DNA from: an uncultured Bdellovibrionales bacterium
GTDB lineage: Bacteria > Patescibacteriota > Minisyncoccia > Moranbacterales > DUUL01
DNA: 64,000 bases
Direction: 5' to 3'
NCBI GenBank assembly: GCA_964421125.1
Contig: CAYQVD010000002.1
Span: 13,579 to 77,578 of the forward strand
The notes below the pieces were generated by a model. The model was not told the DNA's origin and did no database searches. It saw only the letters and a program-made list of their open reading frames with translations. The number at the start of each line of letters is the position of its first letter. Within the stretch, counting starts at the first letter, position 1. This document shows, one piece after another, positions 13,097 to 64,000 of this stretch. The translations under genes were made by a program, and so were the position numbers.

Positions 13097-15073
13097 ATGA
13101 ATTACTACGAAATAATCCCACTCACTCGAATTTCACTTAATCACAGTCCTTCTTTTACCTATTCAAGCAAAGAAGTTTTTAAATTTGGCGATTTAGTAGA
13201 AATTGATTTTGCTGGAAAAAAACTTAAAGGAGTTGTTGACTCAAAGACCAAAAGACCCTTCTACAAAACAAAACTAATTCTCAAGCTTTTACAAGAAGAG
13301 GCAATTAATAAAAAACAATTAAAAATAGCAGAAAAAATATCAAAATACTACTTAACGGGACTGGGAATTGTTCTAAAATTTTTCATCGTCAAATCAACAA
13401 AAAAATTAACGCCGCCTTCAGCTCCTGAGAGTGATATTGGGGATAATAAAAAAGAAAAAGTAATATTAACTCCGTCTCAAAAAAAAATAACTAATGAAAT
13501 CAAGCTATCCAAGAAAATTAGAAAGTTTCTTGTAGCTGGCCCTGCTTCATCAGGAAAAACTGAAATTGCCATGAATTGTATTGGATCAGCCTTAAAACAA
13601 AAAAAACAATGCCTCGTCATCATCCCAGAAATTTTTCTATCCTACCAAGAAATAGATCGCTACTTCAAGCGTTTTAAGAATCATAAAGTTGCACTCTTTC
13701 ACTCTGGATTAACTGCCACACAAAAAAACTTTATTAAAAAAGGAGTTCAAGACGGAACACTAAATTTGATTATTTCAACAAAGATTGGTTGCTTATTACC
13801 TTTTAAAAATCTTGGTTTTATTGTCGTTGATGAAGAACAAGACATTTCTCACAAACAATGGGATCAAAGTCCACGCTATCATGTTCGACAAGTTTCATCT
13901 TGGCTTCAGAAGATTCATAATACTAACCTCATTTATCTTTCTGCTACTCCTTCAATGGAAATTCTAGAAGAAGCTCAGGGGAAATCGATGAAACATTTAA
14001 AACTACCAATGCTTAGTCTCAAAAAAATTGAAGTAAATCAACCAAGCTTTGAATTCGTGAATCTTAAACAATACTTTTATAAGAAAAAAGCTAACGTTAT
14101 CATTTCCAATGAATTAAAAATAGGATTAAAAAATTCCTTAGACACAAAAAAAACCGCCTTTATTCTTGTACAAAGAAGAGGGAGAGGAAAAGCTCTTATG
14201 TGCCTTGACTGTAAAACTAAGGTCTCGTGTCCAAAATGTAATCTGCCATTAGTTCAGGTTGGAGAAAAATATCAGTGCCTTCATTGTGATTTCAAAATCT
14301 CAAGTCTTTCTCAATGTCCAAAATGTCGAAGCTTTAGAATCGTCAATTTAGGCTTTGGAACCGAAAGTGCTTACGAAAAAATTAAAACCATTTTTCCAAA
14401 AGCTCGCATCGAAATCATCGATCAGACAGCCTTAACCAAAAAAAATACACGAAGAAAACTCTACGAGAAATTAAAAAATCAAAAAATAGATATTCTCATT
14501 GGAACCCAATCAATTATTAAGGGTTTTGACTTACCAAACGTTTCCCTGACTGCTATTTTAAATACCGAAAGCTGGAGCGGAAAAACTGACTTCAAGTTTG
14601 ATGAAAGATGGCTTGGAAGTCTTTTCCAAATTGCTGGAAGAGTTAATCGCCCAGGAAGTCTTCAGAAAGGAAAATTCCTAGTTCAAACCTTCAATCCCGA
14701 AAATTACCTCTTTGATTATCTTAAAAAATGGAAATGGGAAGACTTCGCAAAAAATGAATTGAAATCTAGAAAAGCAATTAAATACCCCCCATTCTATCGA
14801 TTCATCAAGTTAATATACCGGGATTCTGACAAGATTAAGGTTGATAAAAACATTAAAAAGGTTTACAATCAACTTCAAAAGGTAAGCGCGAAAGAAATCA
14901 TATCAATTCTGCCTCCTTTTTATGGAAACATTGAAAAAGCTAGAGGATCTTATCAAAAATTTATCCTCGTAAAAACTAAGCCAGTTAAAAAATACTCCCC
15001 AATTCTTCAAAAGATTTTCAATAAACTAGGAGAAAATTGGTATTTCGATGTCGATCCAGAAAATGTTTTTTAA
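13097..15073 (+). CDS. priA: Primosomal protein N' (PriA helicase).
   Basis: Walker A AGPASSGKTE, VVDEEQD, and a Cys-rich Zn region CLDCKTKVSCPKCN...CLHCDF...CPKC. Confidence 0.85.
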   Translation: MNYYEIIPLTRISLNHSPSFTYSSKEVFKFGDLVEIDFAGKKLKGVVDSKTKRPFYKTKLILKLLQEEAINKKQLKIAEKISKYYLTGLGIVLKFFIVKSTKKLTPPSAPESDIGDNKKEKVILTPSQKKITNEIKLSKKIRKFLVAGPASSGKTEIAMNCIGSALKQKKQCLVIIPEIFLSYQEIDRYFKRFKNHKVALFHSGLTATQKNFIKKGVQDGTLNLIISTKIGCLLPFKNLGFIVVDEEQDISHKQWDQSPRYHVRQVSSWLQKIHNTNLIYLSATPSMEILEEAQGKSMKHLKLPMLSLKKIEVNQPSFEFVNLKQYFYKKKANVIISNELKIGLKNSLDTKKTAFILVQRRGRGKALMCLDCKTKVSCPKCNLPLVQVGEKYQCLHCDFKISSLSQCPKCRSFRIVNLGFGTESAYEKIKTIFPKARIEIIDQTALTKKNTRRKLYEKLKNQKIDILIGTQSIIKGFDLPNVSLTAILNTESWSGKTDFKFDERWLGSLFQIAGRVNRPGSLQKGKFLVQTFNPENYLFDYLKKWKWEDFAKNELKSRKAIKYPPFYRFIKLIYRDSDKIKVDKNIKKVYNQLQKVSAKEIISILPPFYGNIEKARGSYQKFILVKTKPVKKYSPILQKIFNKLGENWYFDVDPENVF

Positions 15074-29718: not shown

Positions 29719-30984
29719 TTATAACCAATTCTGCCAAAGCGCAATGGACAATAAGATTAATAAGATTCCAGCAACAAGTCGCATGTACTTCCTAGAAGAT
29801 TTTCTCCAATTTTCTAGCTCATCAGTTTTCTTTTCAAAGAAAACTACAAGAATAACTATAATAAGAAGAGGTAGAATAAAGAAAAGATTATAAAGAACAA
29901 TGTGCCAAAAATATGAGGTGTCACTGTCAGCAAGAACTGAAATATAAGCAAGAGGCAAACCTGAAGTACAAGGCAACTCAACAATACCTGCTAAGATAGC
30001 TAATAATATGGCGCTTGGAACAGTTCCCTTTTTAACAAGCTTCTCGAGAGTCGGTTTTACAATTTCTGGAATCTCAAGGGAAATAAATTTTCCATAAAAG
30101 AAAAAATCTTTTATCATAATAATTCCTATTATTAAAGCCACAATAGAAATAATAATTCTAGCCAGACTAGCAATGCCAAGAAAATCAACTATTTGAATAA
30201 TCCCATACATAAATAAAAAATAAATAAGAAAGGTTGTAACTATAAACGCAATTCCAGCCTTTAAAGCTCTTTTTCGAGAACCAATCACAAGTAAATATGA
30301 AAGGACAAAAAATAACACCGAGAACATACAAGGATTTATCCCATCAGCTAAACCAAGAATTACCCCTAGAATACAAGGGGAAGAAAGATCATCTGTACAA
30401 ATTTCTCTTCCAAAAACTGTCACTACGTCATTCTTACTGTGTTTATGTTCCTGATTACTCTCATCTTTTTTAGCACCTAAGCCCAAAAATTCATCAACCA
30501 ATTCCCCACTAATTAAAACCTGAGAAACTGAAGATAAATCAAGCATATTACTAATTTTCGAATCACAAGCATTCAAAGAACATTTCTTAATAAGATTCTC
30601 GATCTTTTTTCCAATGTTTCCCTCATTATCAAAACCAACAACAACCTCCTCGCCAATAATACTCACAGGAACTCCCCCACTTAAATCATATTCATCAACA
30701 ATTTGAGTAAATATATTTCTCCCATTAAGGTCATTTACATCAAAATATTGAATTTCTAAATTAGAATATTTTTTCTCTAACTTTGGCAAAAACTCTTTTT
30801 CCTCCTTACAATGAGGACAAATTGAAGAACCAAAAAAGAAAAGACGAACTTGATAAGCTTGGTTATTATCATTTATGCTCTTATTATTATCTATTGCCAA
30901 CGCACTACTTACATAAAAAAGGCTCGCAAAAAAAATCAGCGTTACCACACTCATTAAGAATAATATCTTAAATTTATTTTTCAT
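29719..30984 (-). CDS. Thioredoxin-fold domain fused to a CcdA/DsbD-type transmembrane thiol-disulfide transporter.
   Basis: Signal peptide, CPHC thioredoxin motif, then a polytopic domain with GINPCMF and LPCTSGLP. Confidence 0.75.
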   Translation of the reverse strand: MKNKFKILFLMSVVTLIFFASLFYVSSALAIDNNKSINDNNQAYQVRLFFFGSSICPHCKEEKEFLPKLEKKYSNLEIQYFDVNDLNGRNIFTQIVDEYDLSGGVPVSIIGEEVVVGFDNEGNIGKKIENLIKKCSLNACDSKISNMLDLSSVSQVLISGELVDEFLGLGAKKDESNQEHKHSKNDVVTVFGREICTDDLSSPCILGVILGLADGINPCMFSVLFFVLSYLLVIGSRKRALKAGIAFIVTTFLIYFLFMYGIIQIVDFLGIASLARIIISIVALIIGIIMIKDFFFYGKFISLEIPEIVKPTLEKLVKKGTVPSAILLAILAGIVELPCTSGLPLAYISVLADSDTSYFWHIVLYNLFFILPLLIIVILVVFFEKKTDELENWRKSSRKYMRLVAGILLILLSIALWQNWL

Positions 30985-49392: not shown

Positions 49393-49527
49393 GTCATTAA
49401 TATTGATTTTTAGTTTATCATTATTATCTCGAAATATTTTTTAAAGACCTTTTATAGTAGGGAGAATCTGTGCTTTTATTAGATTTATATCACCATCAAG
49501 AAAATCTTCAAATTGATTAGAAAATTA

Positions 49528-50571
49528 TTATATAATCCCAAATAATAAGCAAACTCCCATTCCCAACATAATAATACCGGCTATCAAGTGCAAAATTTTT
49601 AGATTATTACTTCTTTTTTCTTCTGCTTTTTTTATATTCATTCCAAAATATGCACCTAGTGTAATTCCTACCATAGGTAAAACAAAAATTAAATTATATA
49701 AAACTAATAACCAAATTGCTTTAAAATAACTTGTTTTATGTCCTAACATACCAATAATTATAATATAAGGACCACTAGTACAAGGCAATAAAAACAAACT
49801 CACTACAAATCCAGTTAAAAACGCTCCAATAGGATTAGTAATTGAATGAATTAATCCTTTTAATTTTGGACGCCAACTCATTGGTACCTCCATGAGAAAT
49901 CCTTTATTATACCAAAAAAAATCTTTAAGATTAAAGATTCCCAATAGAATAGCAATGATCCCAATAATTTTCATAAAAATTTGAGATGTTTTGACGCCGG
50001 CAATAATTGAATAAAAACCTAATCCCATTAAAAAATAGGAAATAAAAATAGACAAAGTAAAGGCTAATCCAGAAAAAAGTGCTCTTTTTCTTTGTCCAGA
50101 AGCTAATACTGTAGTCATTAAAATAAATAATACTGCAAAAGCACATGGATTAATAGCGTCCACTAAAGATGCACCAATTAAAACAGGTATCGTTAAATCT
50201 CGCGAAAAACTTTCTTTAGTTTCTTTTGTTGTTTCAGTTTTTTTATCTTTATTTTCTAGATAACCAACAATTTGTTTATCGCCAATGAAACATTCATTTC
50301 CAGCATATAAAAAAGGTACTCCTCTATCCATAAGTCCAATACCCTCTTGTTCACAAAGCAAATTAAACTCCTCCGCATTTTTTGAATTTTGATAAATTTC
50401 TTTTTGTATAATTTTTCCTTCTAAATTATTTTCTTTAATAAATTTTTCTACTTGCCCACAATGTGGACAACCCTGTCCATAATATAAAATAGGCTCTTTC
50501 CCCTCATTAGCAAAGGTAATTTGAAAAAAAGTAAAAAAAACAAAAAACAAAATAATAATTTTTTTAGTCAT
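49528..50571 (-). CDS. Second thioredoxin-fold plus CcdA/DsbD-like fusion protein.
   Basis: Signal peptide, CPHC motif, and a membrane domain with INPCAF and LPCTSGPY. Confidence 0.75.
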   Translation of the reverse strand: MTKKIIILFFVFFTFFQITFANEGKEPILYYGQGCPHCGQVEKFIKENNLEGKIIQKEIYQNSKNAEEFNLLCEQEGIGLMDRGVPFLYAGNECFIGDKQIVGYLENKDKKTETTKETKESFSRDLTIPVLIGASLVDAINPCAFAVLFILMTTVLASGQRKRALFSGLAFTLSIFISYFLMGLGFYSIIAGVKTSQIFMKIIGIIAILLGIFNLKDFFWYNKGFLMEVPMSWRPKLKGLIHSITNPIGAFLTGFVVSLFLLPCTSGPYIIIIGMLGHKTSYFKAIWLLVLYNLIFVLPMVGITLGAYFGMNIKKAEEKRSNNLKILHLIAGIIMLGMGVCLLFGII

Positions 50572-50895
50572 AATAAATATTTTCTAAATTAATAAATCTA
50601 CTTACTTAATTTATATTACCATATATTCTAATCTTTTATTTTATTATATGGAATTGCTTTTTAAAATTATTTTTATACTGTTTTGTGTAATATTTTTTTA
50701 GTCATATTGTATTATATTTTTTATAATTTAAATCTTATCTAAAACCGAGCGAAGTAAGGTCTTAGAAAACGTTCGCGTGTCATCTGAAGTTTTTATCCCC
50801 TTTTAGCAAGATAAATTTAAATCATCAAACACACGTTCTTTATTAAACTCCGCCCAAACTCTCATCAAAACAAAAGGATGAAAATTTGGACAGAA

Positions 50896-50935
50896 GAAAA
50901 TTGACAATCCTTTAAAATATTAACTGTCAATTTTC
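50896..50935. promoter_or_regulatory. Perfect 11-bp inverted repeat GAAAATTGACA-N18-TGTCAATTTTC. It looks like an operator for a dimeric regulator.
   Basis: Seen directly in the sequence, about 325 bp upstream of the Trx-CcdA-2 start. Confidence 0.35.
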
Positions 50936-51008
50936 TGTAGCCAAATATAAACTATTTTTTATGCGAACTTTTTATTTTTGAATAACAATACTTTATATGT
51001 TATGCGAA

Positions 51009-51908
51009 CTACTCACTCTTCCCAAATTTCTCAAAAGCTCTCAGGACTTCAAGTGGAAGTGCAAAAACAACTGTATTGGATTGATCGGAAGAAAGATCAT
51101 TAAGCGTGTGTAACGTTCGAAGGTGAAGTGACCCTACTTGTTGAGAAAGAACTCCGGCTGCCTTAGAAATATTCCCAGAAGCCACAACTTCTCCTTCGGA
51201 TTTAATGATTACCGCTCTTTTTTCTCTTTCTGCTTCAGCTTGCTTTCCAATCACTCTTTTCATTTCTTCTGGCAAAGTAACATCTTTTAGTTCAACTGAA
51301 TTGACACTAACTCCCCAAGCGTCAGTTGCTTTGTCTACAATAAGTCTAATTTTTTCAGCAATTGTGTTTCGATTTGAAAGAAGTTCATCTAAGTCAACCT
51401 CTCCAGCTACATTTCGCATAGTTGTTTGAGCCAGTTGTGAAACTGCATAAAAGAAATCTTCTACTTCAATAATTGCCTTCTCGGCATCAACAATCTTATA
51501 ATAAATAACAGCATTGACTGTCACAGAAATATTGTCTTTAGTAATTGCCTCTTGATCCGGCACGTCCACTGCCTTTATTCGCATATCAACTTTTTGGTAT
51601 GATTGGAAGACTGGAATGACAATTTTCCATCCTGGCTCCATAATTCCAGCAAATTTTCCCATTGTGAACTTCACTCCTTTTTCATATTGGTTGATTTGCT
51701 TGATAGAAATCAGCAAAACAACAATCGCGATGACAATGATTGTTAAAAATCCCATGTTTTTATTATTAATAATTAAATCTAAATTTAAAAATCCACCAAA
51801 CGAATCAAAAATAAATCCCAGAAAAATCAGCCAAAAAATCCATTTGCCTTTGCCAAGTTGATCTCCTAATTTTTTAAAATCTATTTCTTGATTATTATTC
51901 TTCCTCAT
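51009..51908 (-). CDS. SPFH/band-7 (stomatin-like) membrane protein.
   Basis: N-terminal TM and an SPFH core. Confidence 0.8.
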   Translation of the reverse strand: MRKNNNQEIDFKKLGDQLGKGKWIFWLIFLGFIFDSFGGFLNLDLIINNKNMGFLTIIVIAIVVLLISIKQINQYEKGVKFTMGKFAGIMEPGWKIVIPVFQSYQKVDMRIKAVDVPDQEAITKDNISVTVNAVIYYKIVDAEKAIIEVEDFFYAVSQLAQTTMRNVAGEVDLDELLSNRNTIAEKIRLIVDKATDAWGVSVNSVELKDVTLPEEMKRVIGKQAEAEREKRAVIIKSEGEVVASGNISKAAGVLSQQVGSLHLRTLHTLNDLSSDQSNTVVFALPLEVLRAFEKFGKSE

Positions 51909-51943
51909 ATCTATATTTTAACCTAAAACTATAATAAAGCAAA

Positions 51944-51986
51944 ACATCTCACCTTCTTACCGGCAGGCAGGCTAAAATGAGATGCT
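51944..51986 (-). terminator. Hairpin terminator after atpC.
   Basis: gcatctca...tgagatg stem and a T-rich tail on the minus strand. Confidence 0.45.
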
Positions 51987-52012
51987 TTTTATAAAAAATT
52001 CCGAATTAAAAT

Positions 52013-52474
52013 CTATTTTTCTAAGTTAATCTTCTGACCACCTTTTTGATGCCTTCTAACTGCTCGAATTCTTGCAAGCTGCACCTCAATTCCAGAAAAA
52101 ACTTCAGCATATTGTTTTTCGTCTTTCACTTCTCCTTGCATTTTCTTCATCTCTTTTTCTGCCCACTCCTTTGCTTTTTCAGCTCTCTCAAGATCAATCT
52201 CTTCTGATCTTTCAGCCGTATCAGCAAGAACAATAACTTTATTCAACAATACTTCCAGAAATCCTCCAGAAACTGCTATTGTTTTCTTCTTTCCATCATT
52301 ATCGACAATTTCAAGCACACCAGGAATCAAAGTTGAAACCAAAGGCATATGCTTTGGTAGAATAGTTATTTCACCTTCTTTAGTTGGAACAGTAACTTGA
52401 ATAATATAATCCTTCAGAACAATTTTTTCTGGAGTCACAAGCTCAAACTTTATTACCTTATTATCATCAAACAT
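52013..52474 (-). CDS. atpC: F1 ATP synthase epsilon subunit.
   Basis: Position and fold-consistent sequence. Confidence 0.8.
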   Translation of the reverse strand: MFDDNKVIKFELVTPEKIVLKDYIIQVTVPTKEGEITILPKHMPLVSTLIPGVLEIVDNDGKKKTIAVSGGFLEVLLNKVIVLADTAERSEEIDLERAEKAKEWAEKEMKKMQGEVKDEKQYAEVFSGIEVQLARIRAVRRHQKGGQKINLEK

Positions 52475-52489
52475 GATTGAAAATTAAGA

Positions 52490-53929
<1,440 letters not shown>

Positions 53930-54001
53930 TTAGTTGTTAGTTATTAGTTTATAATCATCAGTTAATCTATATTTAAATATATATTAAAATATATACATCA
54001 A

Positions 54002-54985
54002 TTACATATTTTCAAGAGCATCTGCTCCAGCACTAATTTCTGCAATTTCAGATGTGATATTCGCCTGTCGCGCTTTATTATATGAAAGCGTCAATTCATC
54101 CACTAAAGTTCCCGCTGCTTCATTAGCTTGATGCATTGCCGTCATTCTCGCGCTGTGCTCAGAGGCGTTTGATTCCAACATTGCTTGAAAAAGCTGAATT
54201 TCAATCAGTCTTGGAACCATATCTTCAAGAACTTCTTCTGCATTTGGTTCATACGTAAACACATAAACATTCTTCTTATCTTCATCTTTCAAATATTTAT
54301 CTTCCTTTTTTTGAATATACTCCTTACTAACTCCAATTTTTTCATCTCCACCAACAATACCAAGATGATCATCCTCCGCTTGAATATCAACCGGTAAAAG
54401 TTGCTTCACTCGAGCGATTTGTTTAGCTACGCTAATATAATCAGTATAAGCAACCATAATTTTGTCATATTTTCCTTCCAGGAATCCATTAATTACAAGA
54501 CTTGCGATTGGTTGAACCTCTCGGACCTCAAAGCAAGCATCTTTTTTCAAAAAATCAGCTGCAATCTTATGTCCATAACGAGAATAGATTGAAACACCTT
54601 TTTTCCCAACAGTAATGATTTCATGTTCAATCTTCTCCCCATCTTCATTCTTTTCGTGAAGATTAATTGACTCATTCACTTTATTAATAATTGCAGAATT
54701 AAAACCTCCACAAAGACCTTTACTTGAACTAATCAAGATAATTCCAACTTTTTTCACTCCAGATTTTTTATCCAACAAGGGATGCTTATTATTTCCTTGG
54801 GTATTAATTGCATTTGCAATATTCAAAACAGTTGTCCAACTCAAGTTAGCATATGTTCTGGTTTTCAAAACCGCTTCGGTTGCTTTTCGCATTTTTGAAG
54901 CAGCTACCATTTCCATCGCTTTCGTGATTTTAATGGTATTGTTAACCGATTTTATTCTTCGTTGTATCTCTTTAGTATTATCCAT
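54002..54985 (-). CDS. atpG: F1 ATP synthase gamma subunit.
   Basis: Conserved N- and C-terminal helices. Confidence 0.9.
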   Translation of the reverse strand: MDNTKEIQRRIKSVNNTIKITKAMEMVAASKMRKATEAVLKTRTYANLSWTTVLNIANAINTQGNNKHPLLDKKSGVKKVGIILISSSKGLCGGFNSAIINKVNESINLHEKNEDGEKIEHEIITVGKKGVSIYSRYGHKIAADFLKKDACFEVREVQPIASLVINGFLEGKYDKIMVAYTDYISVAKQIARVKQLLPVDIQAEDDHLGIVGGDEKIGVSKEYIQKKEDKYLKDEDKKNVYVFTYEPNAEEVLEDMVPRLIEIQLFQAMLESNASEHSARMTAMHQANEAAGTLVDELTLSYNKARQANITSEIAEISAGADALENM

Positions 54986-55037
54986 TCCTTAAAAATATCT
55001 TATATAAATACTATTTATTCTACCTATCCTAATCTGC

Positions 55038-56591
55038 TTAAGCAGAGACAGATTCTTTTTTCTCTTCCTTGATTAAATAATCCAGAGTTGCTTTATAGTC
55101 ATTAATAATTGTTTTCAATTCACCTTCTCCTTCTTCAGAAAAATCACCTGTATCATTAACTTCGGCGACATATTTCTTTGATCGACTCTCAATTTGCTCA
55201 AGAACTCCTTGCTCAAATTCTGTTATCTTCTCAACCGGCACATTATCTAAAAATCCATTAATAGCAGCATAAAAAATCGCAGCTTGAAGCTCAACTGCCA
55301 AAGGAGCATACTGACCTTGCTTAAACACTTCGGTAATTCGTTTTCCTCTTTCAAGTTTTAATTGAGTTTCTTTATCAAGATCAGATCCAAACTGAGCAAA
55401 AGCTGCTAATTCTCGGTATTGAGCAGCTTCTAGTCTCATCTTTCCAGCTACTTTTTTCATCGCCTTAATTTGAGCAGCACTTCCTACTCGAGAAACTGAA
55501 AGACCCGCATTCACTGCTGGCCGATTTCCCTGATAAAAAAGATCTGGTTCCAAATAAATCTGTCCATCAGTAATTGAAATTACATTAGTCGGGATATATG
55601 CAGAAACGTCACCAGCTTGAGTTTCAATGATTGGTAAAGCAGTAATTGATCCTCCGCCAAAATCCTTATTCAACTTACAAGATCTTTCAAGTAATCTTGA
55701 ATGAAGATAAAAAACATCCCCAGGATAAGCTTCTCGTCCCGGTGGACGTCGAAGCAACAAAGAAATCTCTCGATAAGCAACTGCGTGCTTACTAAGATCA
55801 TCATAAACAATCAAAGAATCTTCCCCTTTTTCTAGAAAATATTCTGCCATAGCAGTTCCGGTATAAGGAGCAATGTATGTCATTGAAGCAGGATCACTTG
55901 CTCCAGCCAAAATAATTGTTGTATATTCCATTGCACCAGCCTCTTGAAGTTTTGCTACAATATTGGCAATCTTTGACTCTTTTTGACCAATCGCAACATA
56001 GACACATTTGACACTCTTCCCTTTCTGATTAATTATTGTGTCAATTGCAAGCGCAGTTTTTCCAATTTGTCGATCTCCAATAATCAATTCTCGTTGTCCT
56101 TTCCCAATTGGAATCATTGAATCAACCGCTTTGATTCCAGTTTGAATTGGTTCAGAAACTGATTCTCGAGTAATAACTCCAGGAGCAATTTTTTCAATTG
56201 GATTAAACTTTCCAGATTTAATTTCCTCTTTTCCATCAACTGGTTGTCCCAGTGGATTCAAGACTCTTCCAACAACCTCTTCTCCAACTGGAACTTCCAG
56301 AATTCTTTCCAAGCAAATCACTTCATCCCCTTCTTTAATAGTCTCACAGCTTCCAAGAATAATGACTCCAACACTGTCTTCTTCAAGATTTAAAGCAACT
56401 CCAAAAACAGAACCTTTTGAAGTTTTAAATTCAAGCATTTCCGACATCATAGCAGTAGAAAGACCAGACACTCGAGCAATTCCATCACCTACTTGAATAA
56501 CTTTTCCAAAAGTCTGCTTCTTTATTTCTATCTTATGATCAGAAATTTTCTGTTTAAGTTCTTCAACAATAAAATCTTTTGTCGTAGACAT
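55038..56591 (-). CDS. atpA: F1 ATP synthase alpha subunit.
   Basis: GDRQIGKT Walker A. Confidence 0.97.
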
Positions 56592-56623
56592 AATATTAGT
56601 AATTAGTTAGTAGTTAATAGTTT

Positions 56624-57025
56624 TTAATTATTTAGTGCTTGTTTTAAGCTAGCAATTCTATTCTTTAGGCTTGAATCAAAAATCTCATCTCCCAGCCTGA
56701 CAACAAATCCGCCCTTCAATTGCTTATCAACAATTACTTTAATATCGATCTCTTTACCGCCAGCTCTTTCTATTGCAAATTTTTTAATACTAATTAAATC
56801 ATCCGCATTCAATTCTCTTGCAGTAATAATCTCGGCTTCCAAGATATTATTTTCTTTATTCCAAATATTACTAAAATAGCTCAAAATCTTCTCGAGTTGA
56901 GAAACTTGATTGTTTTCCACTAAAACTTTTGAAAAATTATCTAAAATCTTTGACGCTTCTTCCTTTGAAACATTTCTCACCGATTCAAATAATGTTTGGG
57001 CATATTGCTTTGGTGTTGCTTTCAT
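56624..57025 (-). CDS. atpH: ATP synthase delta subunit (short, OSCP-like).
   Basis: Position between atpF and atpA. Confidence 0.75.
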   Translation of the reverse strand: MKATPKQYAQTLFESVRNVSKEEASKILDNFSKVLVENNQVSQLEKILSYFSNIWNKENNILEAEIITARELNADDLISIKKFAIERAGGKEIDIKVIVDKQLKGGFVVRLGDEIFDSSLKNRIASLKQALNN

Positions 57026-57034
57026 ATAAAAAAT

Positions 57035-57532
57035 TTATTCTAGTGATTTAGTCACCTTCTCAATTAACTCCTTATCATTTTTGTCATCAATCTTTTCATC
57101 CAAAACTTTCTCAAGTGCCAATATAACAATTCCGGATACTTCCGTCTTGATTTCCTTTAAAGTTTCCGTTTTTTCTGCTTTAATCTTTTCTTTTTCTATT
57201 TGAATAATTTGACCAACTTCTTCTTTAGCTTTTTCAATAATACTCTCTTTCTTTTCATTTCCCTCTTCTCGAGATTTTTCAACAATCTTTAAAGCTTCTT
57301 TTTTTGCCTCATTAATAATTTCTTCTTCTTTTCTTGATGCAATTTCTAATTTTACACCTGCTTCTTCAGCATCTTTTACACCTTTTTCAATTCCCTCTTT
57401 TCGTTCTTTGAGAAATTTAAAAATTGGCTTATAAGCTACATAATAAAGGGCTACTAATAAAATCGCAAAATTTATTAATTGTGCAAAAAGAATCTTTAAA
57501 TCTAATCCTAAAGCTTCAAATAACTTACTCAT
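57035..57532 (-). CDS. atpF: ATP synthase Fo subunit b.
   Basis: Single TM plus a long charged helix. Confidence 0.8.
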   Translation of the reverse strand: MSKLFEALGLDLKILFAQLINFAILLVALYYVAYKPIFKFLKERKEGIEKGVKDAEEAGVKLEIASRKEEEIINEAKKEALKIVEKSREEGNEKKESIIEKAKEEVGQIIQIEKEKIKAEKTETLKEIKTEVSGIVILALEKVLDEKIDDKNDKELIEKVTKSLE

Positions 57533-57559
57533 AAATCATTATTTTAAAAATCAAAAAGA

Positions 57560-57587
57560 TTTCGTCATTACGTGCGTAATGACGAAA
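57560..57587 (-). terminator. Perfect 12-bp stem-loop between atpE and atpF; candidate intra-operon attenuator or processing site.
   Basis: tttcgtcattac-gtgc-gtaatgacgaaa flanked by an A-run and a T-run. Confidence 0.45.
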
Positions 57588-57600
57588 CAATTTTTAGTTT

Positions 57601-57849
<249 letters not shown>

Positions 57850-57901
57850 TTATAATTATTTATAAATTTAATTACGTAATTAATTACTTACATAATTATT
57901 T

Positions 57902-58729
57902 TTAAACATCACATGACTGTACTGAAATATTCTCCTCTGATTTTCCTCCTTCTTCTGAGGCCATTGTAATATAAATCAAAGTTAATACAGCAAACACAAA
58001 TGCCTGAACTATTGCAGACAAAAGTCCCAAAAGCATAAACGGCAACGGCACTAAAAATGGAGCCAAAAACAACATCACAGCAGTCAAAACTTCTCCAGCA
58101 AAAATATTTCCAAATAAACGAAATGATAAAGAAATTACTTTAGCAATTTCACTAACCAAATCCATTATTCCCATAAAAACATCGAATAATCCTTGGGCCA
58201 ATCCACCAAAATCAACCTTTCCCTTGGTTAATCCCTTAAAAAAATCAATCAACCCCTTGAAATTCAAAAATTTTCCAACATATCCAAATGGTCCAACCGT
58301 ATAAATCGCAATAATCTGAGTAACGATAACTGAAACCATTGTCATTGCAAAAACCATTCCATAATCAGCAATCACCGCTCTAAAAACTGGGACCATGTCA
58401 TCTCCCCTAGCGACTGTTATTGCAGATTGCCCTGGAATATATACTAGTAAATTTGCAATAATGATAAAAAGAAACAACGTAAAAACAAGAGGGAAAACTT
58501 TTTCTGTTTTCTCATCACTTCCGGTTACAGTTCGAATAAAATCATATCCTCCCTCGAAAATCATCTCTACAAAATTTTGAACTGGTCCAGGAATCTTTTT
58601 CATCTTTTTTCCTACTACGCCCAAAAAAACAATTAGCGTTATAATCAAAATTAATCCCCAAAGAAATGAATTTGTCACTGGAAATGACCATAATTCAAAT
58701 AAAATATCTGGTGCTAATGAAATATTCAT
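57902..58729 (-). CDS. atpB: ATP synthase Fo subunit a.
   Basis: Polytopic protein with conserved Arg in the penultimate helix (SFRLFGNIFAGE). Confidence 0.9.
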   Translation of the reverse strand: MNISLAPDILFELWSFPVTNSFLWGLILIITLIVFLGVVGKKMKKIPGPVQNFVEMIFEGGYDFIRTVTGSDEKTEKVFPLVFTLFLFIIIANLLVYIPGQSAITVARGDDMVPVFRAVIADYGMVFAMTMVSVIVTQIIAIYTVGPFGYVGKFLNFKGLIDFFKGLTKGKVDFGGLAQGLFDVFMGIMDLVSEIAKVISLSFRLFGNIFAGEVLTAVMLFLAPFLVPLPFMLLGLLSAIVQAFVFAVLTLIYITMASEEGGKSEENISVQSCDV

Positions 58730-58731
58730 AA

Positions 58732-59031
58732 TTATTTTTCAATTTCTTGTTTTTCTCCACTCTTCTTTGCTTTCTTCTTATTGTAATATTCGTCAAACTT
58801 CACAGTTAATCTCTTGGTTTTCTTATAAATCAAGATATTAGTCGAAATAAATGCTAGTAAAATTCCTAAAAGCAAAAACAGAGGATTTTTCCCTGTCCAT
58901 TTATCTAAAAAATATCCAAGAATCCCAAAGACTAATAGTGGTCCTAAAATAGAAGAACTGGTATACGTAGCCACTCCTAATATTAAACCTGAAACACTTT
59001 TTGATTTCTCAAATAATTCTTCTTCTTTCAT
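58732..59031 (-). CDS. AtpI/AtpZ-like small two-TM protein at the head of the atp operon.
   Basis: Position and topology. Confidence 0.55.
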   Translation of the reverse strand: MKEEELFEKSKSVSGLILGVATYTSSSILGPLLVFGILGYFLDKWTGKNPLFLLLGILLAFISTNILIYKKTKRLTVKFDEYYNKKKAKKSGEKQEIEK

Positions 59032-59145
59032 GATTAATATTTACTTAATTTGAAACAACAAAAAAATGCATCACGAGCATTAATGTAATGCTACTACAGA
59101 TGCCTTATTCAGAGTCTTTTTGAAAAGTCTCTCATTTATATATTA

Positions 59146-59174
59146 AATATATATACGAATTTTGTAAAAGTCAA
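59146..59174 (-). promoter_or_regulatory. Candidate atp operon promoter.
   Basis: Minus strand TTGACT, 17 nt, TATATT. Confidence 0.35.
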
Positions 59175-59200
59175 GTGAAACATTTTTAGAAAAATTTCCT

Positions 59201-61108
59201 CTACTTCTTCATCACTTCTAAAAATGCTTTTTGTGGAATTTCAGCTTTTCCGGATTGAGTCATTCGCTTCTTTCCTTTCTTTTGTTTTTCGAGAAGTTTT
59301 CTCTTTCTTGTTATATCACCTCCATAAAGATGTCCTGTAACATCCTTTCGATAAGCCTTAATATTTTCTCGAGCAATCATTTTTCCACCAATCGCTGCTT
59401 GTATTTTAATTAAAAAGTTTTGTCGAGGAATAACCTCTTTCAATTTTCCAACAACTCTTCTTCCCTCGCTAACAGCATTTTCTCGTGGAACAATTTGAGA
59501 GAAAGCATCCACTTTGTCTTCTGCAACATAAATATCCATTCGCACTAAATCATAAGCTTGATATCCAGAAACTTCGTAATTCATTGAAGCAAAACCACTC
59601 GTAGCTGATTTCAAAAAATCATGAAAATTAATAATCACTTCTGAAAGTGGTGCATCGAAATGCAAAACAATTCTTTCCTTATCTAAATATTCCGTAGAAA
59701 GATAGATTGCCCTGGTTGTGTCATTAACAAGTCTCATAATCGCTCCTAAATATTCAGCAGGAGAAATAATATCAAGTTTCACCATCGGCTCAAGAATCTC
59801 TTTAATCATATTACTATCTGGCACCTCCGAAGCAGAATAAATATTCTTCTCACTTCCATCTGTTTTCACAATCTTGTAAACAACACTAGGAGAAGTAATC
59901 ACTGGATTGAAATCAAATTCTCGTTTCAATCGCTCTTGAACAATTTCTAAATGAAGCAAACCTAAAAATCCAATTCGAAAACCTCTGCCTAAAGATTGAG
60001 AACTTTCTCCTTCAAAAGCCAATGCGGCATCATTCAATTTTAATTTGTCTAGCGCATCTCGCATTTGATTATAATCCTCCCCTTCAACTGGATAAAAGCT
60101 TGCGTAAACCATTGGTCTCACAACTTTATATCCCGGCAAAGGCTCTATCTTATTTTGCTTTTTCGTATTACTGATATTTGATCTTAAATCGTCTTTTTTA
60201 AATTCAGCTTTTTGAATTGATTTGGAAACTGGAAATTGGAAATTGGAAATTTGCGCCAGAGTTATTGTGTCCCCCACTCGACATTCTTCAACACTCTTCA
60301 ACCCTGTTGCAATGTATCCAACTTCTCCAGCTTTTAGGTCTGACGTAGAATCAAGCTGAGGTCGAAACTTCCCTACTTCAATTGAATCCGCCTTGGAATT
60401 GGTAGCAATAAATTTAATTTCATCTCCCTTCGTAATTCCTCCATCAACAATTCTAACAAAAGCCAAAACTCCTTTATATGAATCATATTTAGAATCAAAA
60501 ATAAGCGCTCTCAAAGGCGCCTCCGAATTTCCACTTGGCGCTGGAACTTTTTCCACAATTCTTTCTAAAATCAAATCCATTCCTTCTCCAGTTTTTCCAC
60601 TAGCTAAAAGCACTTCATTTTCATCACATCCTAAAATTGAAACGATTTCTGCTTTTGTTTTCTCAACTTCTGCGTTAGACAAATCAATCTTGTTTAAAAC
60701 TGGAATAATTTCCAAGTCTTGTTCAATCGCTTGATAAAGATTCGCAAGTGTTTGAGCTTGAACTCCCTTCGTTGCATCCACTAATAAAACTGCTCCTTCA
60801 ACCGCAGCCAATGATCTAGAAACCTCATAACCAAAATCAACATGACCAGGTGTGTCAATTAGATTTAACATATATTCCTTATATTGCATCGTAGCTGGTT
60901 GCAATTTAATTGTAATTCCCCTTTCTCTTTCCAAATCCATCTGATCCAAAAACTGTTCTTTCATTTCTCTCTTCTCAATTGTTCCAGTCATTTCTAAAAA
61001 CCGATCAGCGAGAGTTGATTTCCCATGATCAATATGAGCAATTATACAAAAATTTCTAATATTTTCTTGATTCATCAATTTGTCATTCCCATAAAAATGG
61101 AAATCCAT
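59201..61108 (-). CDS. lepA: Elongation factor 4 (LepA). The start is probably at 61072 (MNQENIRNF...).
   Basis: AHIDHGKST and DTPGHVDF motifs plus the LepA-specific C-terminal domain. Contains a ggaaatt x3 micro-repeat at about 60228-60250. Confidence 0.95.
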   Translation of the reverse strand: MDFHFYGNDKLMNQENIRNFCIIAHIDHGKSTLADRFLEMTGTIEKREMKEQFLDQMDLERERGITIKLQPATMQYKEYMLNLIDTPGHVDFGYEVSRSLAAVEGAVLLVDATKGVQAQTLANLYQAIEQDLEIIPVLNKIDLSNAEVEKTKAEIVSILGCDENEVLLASGKTGEGMDLILERIVEKVPAPSGNSEAPLRALIFDSKYDSYKGVLAFVRIVDGGITKGDEIKFIATNSKADSIEVGKFRPQLDSTSDLKAGEVGYIATGLKSVEECRVGDTITLAQISNFQFPVSKSIQKAEFKKDDLRSNISNTKKQNKIEPLPGYKVVRPMVYASFYPVEGEDYNQMRDALDKLKLNDAALAFEGESSQSLGRGFRIGFLGLLHLEIVQERLKREFDFNPVITSPSVVYKIVKTDGSEKNIYSASEVPDSNMIKEILEPMVKLDIISPAEYLGAIMRLVNDTTRAIYLSTEYLDKERIVLHFDAPLSEVIINFHDFLKSATSGFASMNYEVSGYQAYDLVRMDIYVAEDKVDAFSQIVPRENAVSEGRRVVGKLKEVIPRQNFLIKIQAAIGGKMIARENIKAYRKDVTGHLYGGDITRKRKLLEKQKKGKKRMTQSGKAEIPQKAFLEVMKK

Positions 61109-61115
61109 TTATTTA

Positions 61116-61931
61116 TTAAAGTGGACTTTTAATATTCTTTAGTTTCGGATTTGTTACTTTAGTATAAATTTGTGTTGTTCTAATATTAGCATGACCAAGT
61201 AATTCTTGAACATATCTCACATCAGTTCCATTTTCAAGTAAATGCGTCGCAAAACTGTGTCGAAGTGAATGAAACGTCGCAGATTTTTTTATCCTTGATC
61301 TAATAAGTGCTACATGAAAAACTTTCTGCAATGAAGTAGTTGTTAATTTCCCTCCACGATTACTTTCGAATAAAAAATCGCCCCCATTCTTTCCTAAAAT
61401 CAAAGATTGAATTTCTTCCTTTATTTTTTCAGGAAAAACCGTAATTCGATCTTTTTTCCCTTTGGCATTTTTAATATGAATTATCAATTCTGCTAAGTCA
61501 ACATCTTTCACTTTTAAACTAACAACTTCACTCACCCTAAGACCAGCAGCATATCCCAATGAAACCATTAATTTATGCTTCAAATTTTTGATTTCGTTTA
61601 TAATTTTTTCAATCTCCCCTCTTGATAAAACAACTGGCAATTTTTGACTTCTCTTGGCACATTTAAAGTCAATCTTTTCTTTCAGTTTCAGAACTTCATA
61701 ATATAAAAATTTAACAGAATTCAATGCTAGATTAATTGTTTGAGAAGAATTTCCTTGTTTTTGTCTTTCTAATAAAAAATTTTCAATGGCCTTATTTCTA
61801 TCTTTGATATTTTCTTGCTTAGAAAAATTCAAATATTCTTTTATGTAGAATAAGTAAGCCTTTATTGTCTTTTGACTATAATTTCTTAATTTAAGTAAAT
61901 TTTCTGTTTTTTCTAGAATTGAAGATTGCAT
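61116..61931 (-). CDS. Tyrosine-type site-specific recombinase/integrase (XerC/XerD-like, short).
   Basis: C-terminal catalytic motif HSLRHSFATHLLENG...LLGH...TQIYT. Confidence 0.8.
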   Translation of the reverse strand: MQSSILEKTENLLKLRNYSQKTIKAYLFYIKEYLNFSKQENIKDRNKAIENFLLERQKQGNSSQTINLALNSVKFLYYEVLKLKEKIDFKCAKRSQKLPVVLSRGEIEKIINEIKNLKHKLMVSLGYAAGLRVSEVVSLKVKDVDLAELIIHIKNAKGKKDRITVFPEKIKEEIQSLILGKNGGDFLFESNRGGKLTTTSLQKVFHVALIRSRIKKSATFHSLRHSFATHLLENGTDVRYVQELLGHANIRTTQIYTKVTNPKLKNIKSPL

Positions 61932-61978
61932 ATTTATTTAAAAATAGTATAATCTAATTATATTTAAAATATAACATA

Positions 61979-61992
61979 AGTTCGCATAACAT
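61979..61992 (-). promoter_or_regulatory. Candidate recombinase target (att/dif-like arm) 45 bp upstream of the recombinase start.
   Basis: AGTTCGCATAACAT. Its reverse complement occurs at 50997..51010, and a 10/10 core occurs at 50960..50969. The arm resembles the E. coli dif XerC arm GGTGCGCATAA. Confidence 0.35.
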
Positions 61993-62081
61993 ACAAATTA
62001 TTGCTATTAAAAAATTAAAAGTTTAGATAAAAACCAGTTGTACGAAATTATTTTATTTTTGTTCTTAAAAATCTAAATATT

Positions 62082-62396
62082 AAAAAATCAGGAATGGGCT
62101 ACTATTTAAAACATTTAACGAGGAGGACAATATGGCTAAAATTAAAATAGGCAATTTGGTAATTCCAAAGGGGTATCGAGAAAATTGGCAAATAGGCAAA
62201 GTCATCGGCATGAAGCGCTTGGATTTAAACATCGGACCGATTCTGGTCATCATGGATTTTATTACAAGAAAATGGGTTGAAGAGTTGCCGATGCATGTCG
62301 ATAAGTTAGTCCGCGCGACATAACGCACATTCCAAACTATCGAGTTTTAATTAGGCGTATTCGTTAATCAACGTTTACGCCCATTCCTGATTTTTT
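62082..62396 (+). other. Small-ORF module bounded by perfect 18-bp inverted repeats, at 62082..62099 and 62379..62396.
   Basis: AAAAAATCAGGAATGGGC and GCCCATTCCTGATTTTTT flank the 62132..62323 ORF. Confidence 0.6.
62132..62323 (+). CDS. Hypothetical 63-aa protein with a strong Shine-Dalgarno (GAGGAGG) and a short hydrophobic core.
   Basis: AACGAGGAGGACAAT then ATG. GC is higher than in the surrounding DNA. Confidence 0.5.
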   Translation: MAKIKIGNLVIPKGYRENWQIGKVIGMKRLDLNIGPILVIMDFITRKWVEELPMHVDKLVRAT

Positions 62397-62634
62397 AATG
62401 ACAATAATGAAACAAAAATAAAATAACATCGCACAACACCGCGATAAGCGGCTACAGAAAATTTCCTTAATTACATATAATAATGAGTGAATTTTTCTTC
62501 CGACCCAAATTTCGATTCCCAATTAAATTAATAAGGAAGAATCAAAACTTCGCTTCATCGGGAAACGTTAAATGAAATAAAATTCAGACCTCTAACTCAA
62601 AAGTATTATAAATAACAATTTCTTTTTAAATGAT

Positions 62635-63327
62635 ATGCGTACAGGATTTGATATAAATTTGATTCAAGGGGATGGATACCTAGTTATTCCATTGTCTATG
62701 GTTAGATTAGGTAATAGTCAATCTCCAGAAGATACATATAAAATCTTTCATTATTTCTCTAAAAAATTAGCAACATATACGAATGATGTAATCTTGCTTT
62801 ATACAAGTGGTTTATATTTTAATGATGAAAATATAACTTATGAAAAGCGAGTTAAAATTAACGAACAAATGATAAATCATTCTTTGGCTCTTCGTAAATT
62901 AATTCAAAAGAAGAAAGAATTTATGCCGGGTGCTTTTCATTTTCTTCCAATAGATTACATCATTCTAAATTGTAAAGATTTTAGAGTATTTTTTAACAAG
63001 CTCAAAAGATTAGTTAAAACTGATGAGAAATTCAAAGAATGTGTGAAAAAAGATATGGGCAAAAGAGAATATAATGAAGCAAATGAAAATTTTATTCTTG
63101 AAGAAGTTGCAGTTGCCCATATCATAAAAGAGAGACTTGTTGAATTTCCAAGAACGCTTGTTAAAAATGATATCTGGAGATTGATTGCATATCCAGGAAC
63201 ATACATGGAAAGTGATAAGTATCAATGGAATAACAAGATTTTACCACAAAATGATATTATCAATCCTTTCCGCGGTACGCAATACGATTTTGAAAAAAAG
63301 AAATTGTTTGTCTATTCTGATATGTAG
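62635..63327 (+). CDS. Hypothetical 230-aa protein.
   Basis: Clean ORF with no motif. Confidence 0.45.
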   Translation: MRTGFDINLIQGDGYLVIPLSMVRLGNSQSPEDTYKIFHYFSKKLATYTNDVILLYTSGLYFNDENITYEKRVKINEQMINHSLALRKLIQKKKEFMPGAFHFLPIDYIILNCKDFRVFFNKLKRLVKTDEKFKECVKKDMGKREYNEANENFILEEVAVAHIIKERLVEFPRTLVKNDIWRLIAYPGTYMESDKYQWNNKILPQNDIINPFRGTQYDFEKKKLFVYSDM

Positions 63328-63685
63328 GGTCGGTCTGAATTTTACTTGCTTCACTTCGTTTCGCACCACGCTGCGCTCTCCTCCTTTCAGTCGTCGGGTC
63401 ATTTAACAGGGGATAAAAGGAAAATTGCTCGGCTCGCAATTTTCCCAAATTTTCTCCGCTACGCTACGAAAACTTCTTTTATCCCCGATGTTAGGCGATA
63501 TATTTTTGAAAAATTTGTTTTTAAAATGTTCTTGGTGGGCTTTTAAGAAATAGGGAATTAAATTTTTTTAATTTTTAAAGAGAGGGGTAAAGAGTGATTT
63601 CTTCGCTATCACTTCAAAAACGATTTATTTAAAATAACAAAACTTACATAATGATTACAATTTTAATTTATAAATAGCAATTAAT
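63328..63685. other. ORF-free GC-enriched structured segment.
   Basis: Nested inverted repeats: aggggataaaag...cttttatcccc enclosing gaaaattgc-tcggctc-gcaattttc. Confidence 0.3.
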
Positions 63686-64000
63686 ATGGATTACAAAATC
63701 ATCAAAAAATATTTAGACAAGCAAAAGATCAAAGTAATCTTATTATTAATTATGGTATTCTTTATTGCCGGTTGCAGTCAAAAAAGCGAACTGGGCAATA
63801 ATCCTTCCGATTCAGCCAAAGAGACAATTAATGAAGAAAATAAAGAAGAAACAGTGGCTTCTATTCCAGATAATCTTATTTCTTGCGATCCAGCCTACTT
63901 CAAACGCGGCACTGATGGCATAGCGCCTGACTGTGACACGTTTGAGGAAGGTAAGGTTTGTTCCTATCACACCAAAGAAAAAAATGGTGAGACTAAAATT
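63686..64000 (+). CDS. Putative lipoprotein; the 3' end lies outside the window.
   Basis: MDYKIIKKYLDKQKIKVILLLIMVFFIAGCSQ lipobox. Reading frame is open to the window end. Confidence 0.55.
   Translation, partial: MDYKIIKKYLDKQKIKVILLLIMVFFIAGCSQKSELGNNPSDSAKETINEENKEETVASIPDNLISCDPAYFKRGTDGIAPDCDTFEEGKVCSYHTKEKNGETKI

Follow-up and report, generated by a model that had tools for sequence, protein, structure and literature searches.

Inverted 14-mers in a Patescibacteria genome as parts of two probable attachment platforms for gene cassettes, one beside a Xer/IntI-like tyrosine recombinase

Introduction

Why should two inverted copies of a short motif, similar to the XerC-binding arm of a dif site, flank an 11-kb block of housekeeping genes, with one copy directly upstream of a tyrosine recombinase gene? 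This question is raised by a 64,000-nt stretch of DNA (the window, whose own numbering is used throughout) from an uncultured bacterium of the Patescibacteria (Candidate Phyla Radiation, CPR), corresponding to positions 13,579 to 77,578 of contig CAYQVD010000002.1 in assembly GCA_964421125.1. A preliminary description of the window had reported the motifs and had suggested that the block between them is, or was, inverted by the recombinase, or that the motifs are binding sites for this enzyme. The motifs are real, but the description understates them. Each 14-mer is a piece of one of two copies of a ~130-bp tyrosine recombinase docking site, and with a probability that we put at roughly 70%, they mark two attachment platforms of a site-specific system of gene cassettes that the neighboring Xer/IntI-like tyrosine recombinase operates. 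Our evidence base consists of assemblies and sequence comparison. From it we read directly how the sites are built, how they are conserved and covary, where exactly the recombination junctions fall, and that the left copy is an orphan.

Results

The 14-mers are parts of a longer repeat

As had been described, the 14-mer ATGTTATGCGAACT occurs at 50997-51010 on the plus strand and its exact reverse complement at 61979-61992. A third copy of the core, TTATGCGAACT, lies at 50959-50969. When up to two mismatches were allowed, the window contained four matches against 0.36 expected, and none of 100 shuffled sequences reached four, so that an origin by chance was rejected. The right 14-mer is upstream of the recombinase gene, at a distance of 48 nt from the ATG (61931), and the left one, at the end of the SPFH gene, overlaps its stop codon (51009-51011). 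The description had found no convincing XerD arm after the 14-mer, correctly, as the 14-mer is a lone half-site and the full core site is located 41 bp further out.

Both copies are embedded in a 61-nt inverted repeat (50950-51010 and 61979-62039; 51 of 61 positions identical, 84% complementary), and each of its arms contains two direct copies of a TTAT..AACT motif, 41 bp apart. When the 401 bp at 62037-62437 were conceptually removed, the left and right copies aligned over ~132 nt with a score of 111, compared with 82 when the segment was retained. This alignment includes an ATTTGG box and a 14-nt flank of the outer arm, AATTTTCTGTAGCC, in which the left copy and the outer flank of the right site are identical at 14/14 positions, both by direct reading and in the alignment. 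Since removal of 62037-62437 restores collinearity with the empty left copy, the right platform equals the left platform plus a 401-bp insert.

A conserved platform precedes the recombinase gene

The right platform occupies 61979-62036 and resumes at 62438-62513 (minus strand), and it is a conserved element just upstream of the recombinase in most related CPR loci. Its core site, A, is represented at 62020-62036 (minus strand) by the proximal arm R_A (AGTTTAGATAA on the plus strand; 62020-62030) and the central region (62031-62036). An alignment of 63 elements gave the consensus ATTTcg.atAAC|T.GTTtTTAT.c.AAcT, followed by ~21 weakly conserved nt and then TTGTaTgTTATgCaAAC, the most conserved block of the element. 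We read core site A as 11-bp arms around a 7-bp centre (ATTTCGNATAA, CTSGTTW, TTATNCNAACT), with dyad symmetry at 8-9 of 11 positions in the consensus, and this is the build of a dif-type site, namely 28-31 bp with two ~11-bp partly symmetric arms and a 6-11-bp centre. In direct comparison R_A agrees with the XerD arm of Escherichia coli dif at 8/11 positions, and the outer arm R_P agrees with the XerC arm at 7/11.

Half-site B (TTATGCGAACT; 61979-61989, minus strand) is a direct repeat of the proximal arm of the core, and together with a following ATG it makes up the right 14-mer (61979-61992). Its spacing to the other arm is constant at 41-42 bp. Directly after B stands a conserved TGnTAT (61968-61976), likely to be the putative extended -10 element of the recombinase promoter, and in nearly all relatives B lies upstream of the gene between a TTGTAT box and this TGnTAT box. 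B may act as an accessory or autoregulatory site.

With an nhmmer model built on the 77 nt upstream of the gene in the window, 61 of 80 genome loci proved to have the element, one copy each and always immediately before the orthologous recombinase gene, and an independent metagenome scan yielded it upstream of the recombinase in 29 of its 42 platform-bearing loci. The motif is thus a Xer/dif-type arm tied to the adjacent recombinase gene, as the preliminary description had supposed. It is also not a generic dispersed repeat, since the half-site is enriched 30-50-fold and only at -150 to 0 relative to the recombinase gene. Conservation in relatives holds for the right copy (61/80 loci) and fails for the left, which is absent after the SPFH gene in relatives with 95% and 85% protein identity. 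The motifs are very probably both binding and recombination sites of this recombinase, which bears out the second of the two earlier suggestions.

A 17-mer, TTGTATGTTATGCGAAC, also occurs in viral contigs from IMG/VR (L220-L227, L232, L233 and L237; related loci are designated by L numbers) and in L106, L154, L174 and L200. In the viral family it stands in another conserved context (a G-run ...TTTGTATGTTATGCGAACTGATTAGACATACAGGGATGAATGCTCCACCC), without platform or recombinase, and is apparently an unrelated conserved element. The 18 viral-contig matches to this 17-mer all proved to be unrelated. A role of the platform as the dif site of a replication terminus is disfavored, as the 19 spanning loci show no consistent GC-skew switch. 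The apparent switch at 62 kb of the window reflects a local ~4.5-kb patch of plus-strand genes.

The recombinase is Xer/IntI-like

The recombinase gene (61116-61931, minus strand) encodes a protein of 271 amino acids with Pfam Phage_integrase and SAM-like N-terminal domains, which is Xer/IntI-like and belongs to the 'Cand' group of simple tyrosine recombinases. Its best NCBIfam model is the XerA_Arch equivalog (225 bits, above the cutoff of 220), whereas the integron-integrase model TIGR02249 gives a split match of 216 bits, below its cutoff of 265. Among solved structures, those nearest in sequence are VchIntIA (2A3V, 161 bits), XerA (144 bits) and XerD (98 bits). The IntI-specific insertion of ~30 residues is absent, and the alignment to VchIntIA skips IntI4 residues ~211-241. 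According to Messier & Roy (2001), as cited in PMC9668308, an additional domain around patch III defines the integron integrases; because this domain is missing from the recombinase, the system is not formally an integron.

The catalytic-type residues R132, H221, R224, H247 and Y256 are invariant in 18 orthologues, in agreement with the RKHRHY pattern of the Xer family. Orthologues of 60-81% identity are spread over many Patescibacteria lineages, and relatives do not share a common order of genes downstream of the recombinase. The 'Cand' family was noted earlier as near Xer, restricted to candidate phyla, and without described site or function (10.1101/542381). We infer that this recombinase is the catalyst at the platform and cassette sites. 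In a few loci, a second, divergent tyrosine recombinase paralogue is encoded near the platform or array (L126, 13413-14261, 32% identical; L050, 1046-1870, and L066, 1100-1915, 31-33%).

Partner sites delimit single-gene cassettes

A partner site, P, was located 25-4000 nt further out in 37 of the 44 loci with enough flanking sequence, with the consensus GAACCgcATAYnCnnT|GTT-R-NNN-GA. At its variable positions, P carries the reverse complement of those in the distal A arm of the same genome (TC-NNN-Y-AAC|). Over 31 automatically paired cassette ends, this complementarity reached 4.10 of 5 variable positions, compared with 2.76 +/- 0.16 for permuted pairs and a maximum of 3.45 in 2000 permutations.

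In all 22 P-A intervals longer than 290 nt (22/22), the longest open reading frame (ORF) takes up the greater part of the interval and is divergent in direction from the recombinase gene. Shorter intervals contain GC-rich loops only. The encoded products are mutually unrelated and include an Asp/Glu racemase, MazG, isochorismatase, SAM methyltransferases, an HNH nuclease, Ham1, a CPT/zeta-like kinase and proteins without assigned family. The inserts carry no recombinase and are flanked by hybrid sites at a Xer-type site, as is seen from the empty and occupied copies in the window and from the anatomy of P and A.

Further features of these units were noted. The terminal inverted repeats reach ~30 nt in some cassettes (for example in L035), well past the 12-nt arms. 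ORF-less 'mini-cassettes' lie just upstream of site A in L016, L028, L029, L031, L054, L061, L064, L066 and L085, each formed by two inverted arms around a 13-60-nt GC-rich loop with a GAGCGAAGCGGA-like sequence, in genomes that are otherwise AT-rich, and similar GC-rich tracts follow many P sites. In the window, a conserved leader of ~50 nt separates the end of the cassette from the start of its ORF (63575-63625; AAAGAGAGGGGTAAAGAGTGATTTCTTCGCTATCACTTCAAAAACGATT on the coding strand), and the same leader stands upstream in L034, L084, L068, L076, L045 and L030 and at 8300-8350 of L001, which belong to distant lineages. With its Shine-Dalgarno-like GAGGGG and hairpin, it may be a shared translational or regulatory signal.

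Cassettes form co-oriented arrays separated by imperfect-palindrome junctions

Several loci carry more than one P site (five in L076 and in L010, four in L067 and in L087). A hidden Markov model (HMM) of the P site, applied to the genome loci (272 kb upstream and 655 kb downstream of the recombinase), detected 58 sites upstream, all in one orientation, and 0 elsewhere; in the 42 platform-bearing metagenome loci it detected 25 upstream in one orientation and 0 elsewhere, and 586 kb of unrelated loci gave a single match. The result is a co-oriented array beside the recombinase gene and reading away from it, as in integrons, with the first cassette divergent in 22/22 cases and at least three cassettes in the window.

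Successive slots are separated by junctions with the layout ...Y-AAC|GTTnnGG-TATATnCGAAGTT, a 40-100-nt linker (often ATTTGGGT plus a hairpin), and GAACCGnATATAccnnT|GTT.... The inner arms of the junctions covary from case to case (GGCATATCCG/CGGATATGCC, GGGATATACG/CGTATATCCC and AGGTGTATCTG/CAGATACACCT), and the mean longest perfect stem in 53 junctions is 8.96 nt, compared with 4.64 +/- 0.25 in permuted pairings. An Rfam search at gathering thresholds over nine array-bearing loci returned only rRNA, tRNA and a SAM riboswitch, with no match at P or A sites or at junctions.

The right platform of the window is itself occupied by at least three cassettes, from 62037 to the window end. Cassette 1 (62037-62437, plus strand, 401 bp) is the insert recognized above; it has the ends GTTGTACGAAAT... 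and ...ACATCGCACAAC, a single ORF of 63 amino acids (62132-62323) and nested inverted repeats, namely 62037-62063/62411-62437 (89%) and 62079-62099/62379-62399 (100%). The second of these, a perfect 21-nt inverted repeat, lies inside the terminal arms and brackets the ORF. The P-site HMM matches at 62423-62459 (E=6e-5), across the outer end of the cassette. The following junction, J12 (62438-62566, minus strand), contains the R_P arm (62444-62455) flanked by AATTTTCTGTAGCC, an ATTTGGG box (62503-62513), a linker and the inner arm of the next slot, AAC|GTTTCCCGATGAAGCGAAGTT. Cassette 2 (62567-63408, plus strand; ends GTTAAATGAAAT... and ...GGGTCATTTAAC, also given as GTTAAATGA... and ...TCATTTAAC) has an inverted repeat at 62575-62590/63332-63347 and one ORF (62635-63327), whose 230-amino-acid product has no family match.

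The junction J23 (63409-63490) is an imperfect palindrome that is predicted to fold much like an integron attC site, with an AAC/GTT outer stem, a 2-nt bulge, an 11-bp stem (GGGGATAAAAG/CTTTTATCCCC) and variable inner hairpins that include the ATTTGGG box. Folded as single-stranded DNA, the region 63397-63502 gave z=-3.75 for the plus strand and -4.60 for the minus strand, and 0 of 200 shuffled sequences folded as well. Cassette 3 starts at 63491 (GTTAGGCGAT...; plus strand) and runs off the window at 64000, and its ORF, from 63687, corresponds to a 150-amino-acid product on contig L001. An array-like row was also noted downstream of the SPFH gene in L096-L099, a relative at 85% identity, where six small co-oriented genes follow one another (DUF2177, TspO, DUF4405, cupin, YgaP-like and one other); neither a platform nor a P site was found there.

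Breakpoints coincide with the cassette ends

We compared closely related loci for the positions at which their identity ends. Two metagenome-assembled genomes (MAGs), L035 and L037, share ~99.9% identity from the recombinase across cassette 1, exactly as far as |GTTATGTGA, and are unrelated beyond. L163/L183 and L182 have platform and recombinase in common (96%) and diverge at TAAC|, and L043 and L128 have a common cassette end, ATTTCAGCTAAC|, which is followed by an internal junction in one and by the platform in the other.

The assemblies break at the same place. As many as 31 of 80 contigs stop no more than ~400 nt upstream of the recombinase gene, and the junction lies at most 400 nt from the contig start in 22 of the 50 contigs with a located junction, five of which start 3-5 nt from it. 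The junction is at position 140 in three MEGAHIT k141 contigs and at 55, 127 and 152 in others. For the Logan population P0066, some contigs span the site, and others begin with AACT or with a 31-mer whose last letters are AACT. Contig ends of this kind are the mark left by a de Bruijn graph that branches precisely at the junction. Taken with the occupied and empty copies of the window, the identity breaks and assembly breaks point to recombination at AAC| and |GTT.

Two other schemes were rejected. A strict integron model with crossover at one cassette end only is contradicted by L035/L037, and inversion of each cassette by simple P x A recombination does not agree with ORFs that are always in one orientation, nor with contigs that break at AAC| and not at the outer edge of the arms. 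The MAG contigs L013, L018, L026, L033, L041, L044, L081 and L086 are further examples of the very frequent contig ends a few nucleotides from AAC|, which is a systematic break-point of assembly and binning in CPR genomes and probably strips cassette arrays from many MAGs.

The left copy is an orphan, empty platform

The left platform (50876-51010, plus strand) contains the ATTTGG box at 50876-50889, R_P with its flank AATTTTCTGTAGCC at 50929-50948, AAC at 50950-50952, the central region, R_A (TTATGCGAACT) at 50959-50969, a spacer and B at 51000-51010, within the left 14-mer. No recombinase gene accompanies it, and it runs up to the 3' end of the SPFH gene, which is convergent. Further out, the inner half of an internal array junction, AAC|GTTCGCG TGTCATCTGAAGTT (50768-50791, plus strand), forms the proximal end of a cassette-like unit with a DsbD_TM-family gene (49528-50571, minus strand; 347 amino acids; Pfam), which reads away from the left platform as cassettes do. 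Since 50767-50945 aligns with internal array junctions of L010 (score 176) and L087 (score 146), the DsbD_TM gene sits cassette-like in the second array position, with the first slot empty.

L095, the relative with a 95% identical SPFH protein and 91% DNA identity, has atpC, the SPFH gene, a terminator and a convergent DUF3048 gene and lacks both the platform and the DsbD gene, so that ~1.6 kb (~49410-51008) is specific to the lineage of the window; relatives at 85% identity have no platform after the SPFH gene either. Platforms without recombinase also exist elsewhere (L110, L112, L149, L188 and L215), four of them followed by the 3' end of a convergent ORF and that of L110 by another array junction. 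The -10 box and the ATG survive in L188, and 22 codons survive in L166; these different remnants indicate that the recombinase was lost with different breakpoints in different lineages. The left copy is better read as an orphan remnant and the right copy as the active platform, and the left copy may have arisen by duplication or by acquisition.

A second DsbD_TM-like gene at 29884-30633 (minus strand) is 35% identical to the platform-side one, which may be an accessory paralogue. In L095 (1265-1285) the SPFH stop codon is followed by ATATTTCGTCTAAT, which resembles a distal arm (ATTTCGTCTAAC in L060); the extra segment may have entered here, at a secondary attachment site.

Discussion

A model for the platform and its cassettes

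These findings support the following model. From the outside toward the gene, the platform consists of R_P (consensus GAACCGCATAT, XerC-arm-like), a short central region, R_A (TTATGCAAACT, XerD-arm-like) and, 41 bp nearer the gene, half-site B, just before the -10 box of the recombinase, and the right platform may drive or regulate the recombinase gene. Small units, each with one ORF or only a GC-rich loop, lie inserted between R_P and R_A, bounded by inverted terminal arms, GTT-R-NNN-GA... and ...TC-NNN-Y-AAC, and each insertion yields a hybrid site on either side, namely P (R_P-central|GTT...) and A (...AAC|central-R_A). Additional slots follow in tandem, separated by imperfect-palindrome junctions of 80-180 nt, and the sites may recombine either as duplex DNA or as folded single strands. 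The left platform would then be a copy that lost, or never had, the recombinase, with an empty first slot and the DsbD-like gene next.

Several points weigh against this model. The central regions of P and A differ, and the classical two-step exchange of tyrosine recombinases is therefore not expected. The empty left site has ~10 nt between its arms and not 6-7, and the distal end of the DsbD unit is degenerate, with no recognisable site. Some junctions are degenerate as well, the fold of J12 as single-stranded DNA is weak (z=-1.3 and -1.4), and the long-range complementarity of the arms is perfect in only 18 of 31 cassettes (~60%) and imperfect in ~40%. A scan for the sigma-70 consensus did not flag the proposed recombinase promoter. 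All assemblies of the organism of the window are identical in arrangement. Moreover, the loci were selected for encoding the recombinase, so that arrays far from any recombinase would escape.

Alternative explanations

Among the alternatives, the one that survives best, though we consider it unlikely, holds that the recombinase is the sole chromosome-dimer resolvase, the platform the chromosomal dif, the cassettes miniature elements that exploit Xer in the manner of integrative mobile elements exploiting Xer (IMEX), and the left copy a pseudo-dif. The dif-like arms (R_P 7/11 and R_A 8/11) and the XerA equivalog score above cutoff speak for it, inserts between hybrid sites are the expected product of IMEX integration, sites of single-recombinase Xer systems adjoin the gene, as for XerS/difSL and XerH/difH (PMC5357621), and the 'Cand' recombinases have been provisionally grouped with the dimer-resolution enzymes (10.1101/542381). 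However, the GC skew has the same sign on both sides of the platform in 15 of 19 spanning contigs (for example +0.21/+0.17 in L042 and -0.15/-0.22 in L016), and the platform is therefore usually not at the replication terminus. This genome also has two copies of the platform, whereas a chromosome has one dif, and the covarying hairpin junctions and uniform ORF orientation are foreign to known IMEX arrays.

It is much less probable that the motifs are operators only, by which the recombinase would repress its own promoter, the left copy being a chance or decaying duplicate. The position of B between the TTGTAT and conserved TGnTAT boxes in nearly all relatives favors such a function, but it leaves the partner sites, the arrays, the covariation and the identity and contig breakpoints at AAC| and |GTT unexplained, and an operator role could hold for site B alongside the cassette model.

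The inversion proposed in the preliminary description, with the inverted copies as the ends of an 11-kb segment flipped by the recombinase, is the least credible alternative and highly improbable: two similar inverted recombinase sites do flank the segment, one of them next to the recombinase gene, but the segment consists of housekeeping genes that are not part of the element (51009-61108, all on the minus strand, with the SPFH/slipin gene at 51908-51009, the whole F-type ATP synthase operon atpC-D-G-A-H-F-E-B-I, and lepA, assigned by Pfam), it has a single orientation in ~11 independent assemblies from several samples (which report majority states, so that minor forms are possible), its GC skew matches the neighboring minus-strand regions, the arms are diverged (only 84% identical) with different putative crossover regions (AAC|TATTTT and AAC|TGGTTT), the lineage-specific left copy is absent from the 91%-identical relative, and no relative has an inverted partner within 10 kb.

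Relation to known systems

The cassette system resembles integrons in many respects. In both, the tyrosine recombinase gene adjoins the primary site, with extra direct-repeat binding sites between gene and core; the cassettes mostly have a single ORF, all read away from the recombinase and have diverse accessory functions. The attC sites of integrons are imperfect palindromes (R''/R' with AAC/GTT, and L''/L') in which structure is conserved and not sequence, and the junctions here likewise appear to be imperfect palindromes with an AAC/GTT outer stem and a covarying inner stem. The closest solved structure by sequence is a Vibrio integron integrase. In integrons the crossover is at G|TT of the core site, on the folded bottom strand, and here it would be at N|GTT. 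In contrast to integrons, the recombinase has no IntI-specific domain and scores below the integron-integrase cutoff, both ends of the cassette core act as breakpoints, the cassette cores have inverted terminal arms of their own (12-30 nt), an 'empty slot' keeps its junction, and the arms are dif-like.

With XerS/difSL, XerH/difH and archaeal XerA/dif, the system shares a Xer-like recombinase, for which XerA is the best NCBIfam model, and a site of two inverted ~11-bp arms, placed beside the gene as for XerS and XerH (PMC5357621). It differs from them in that the site lies off the GC-skew switch in most spanning contigs and in having the extra half-site, cassette arrays and orphan copies.

The IMEX (CTX-phi, TLC and the gonococcal island) and the Acinetobacter pdif/dif modules are alike in being short recombinase-less modules between hybrid Xer-type sites, which build up in tandem at one site and have partners with non-identical central regions. 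For CTX-phi, non-identical central regions mean a single strand exchange. Here, however, the units are much shorter, from 13 nt to ~1.6 kb with one gene each, and share a single orientation, with conserved structured junctions, and they are found beside the recombinase gene across a whole bacterial radiation; the pdif modules, by their inverted XerC/D-XerD/C sites on plasmids, differ as well. A search of the literature, incomplete in its coverage, found no paper that links CPR recombinases to cassettes or integrons.

Implications

We regard it as possible, at slightly less than even odds, that an integron-like cassette system is widespread in Patescibacteria (CPR), in which a recombinase intermediate between Xer and integron integrases combines dif-type arms with attC-like folded junctions. 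If so, the system would represent a surviving intermediate between Xer/dif systems and integrons, as well as a major means, so far undescribed, by which ultra-small bacteria exchange genes. Integrons are thought to derive from Xer-type recombinases, and to our knowledge no intermediate system is known; integron searches would miss such a system, because they require the IntI-specific domain. CPR bacteria have tiny genomes, and few mechanisms of mobile elements have been described for them.

For the window itself, the 11-kb housekeeping block would not be a switch, but would merely lie between an active and a decayed platform. A platform conserved across CPR lineages would explain the local hypervariability and the recurrent assembly break beside the recombinase gene, and its sites, as defined DNA substrates of ~30-130 bp, would allow biochemistry on an uncultured group. 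The question of which came first, recombination of folded or of duplex sites, would become directly testable.

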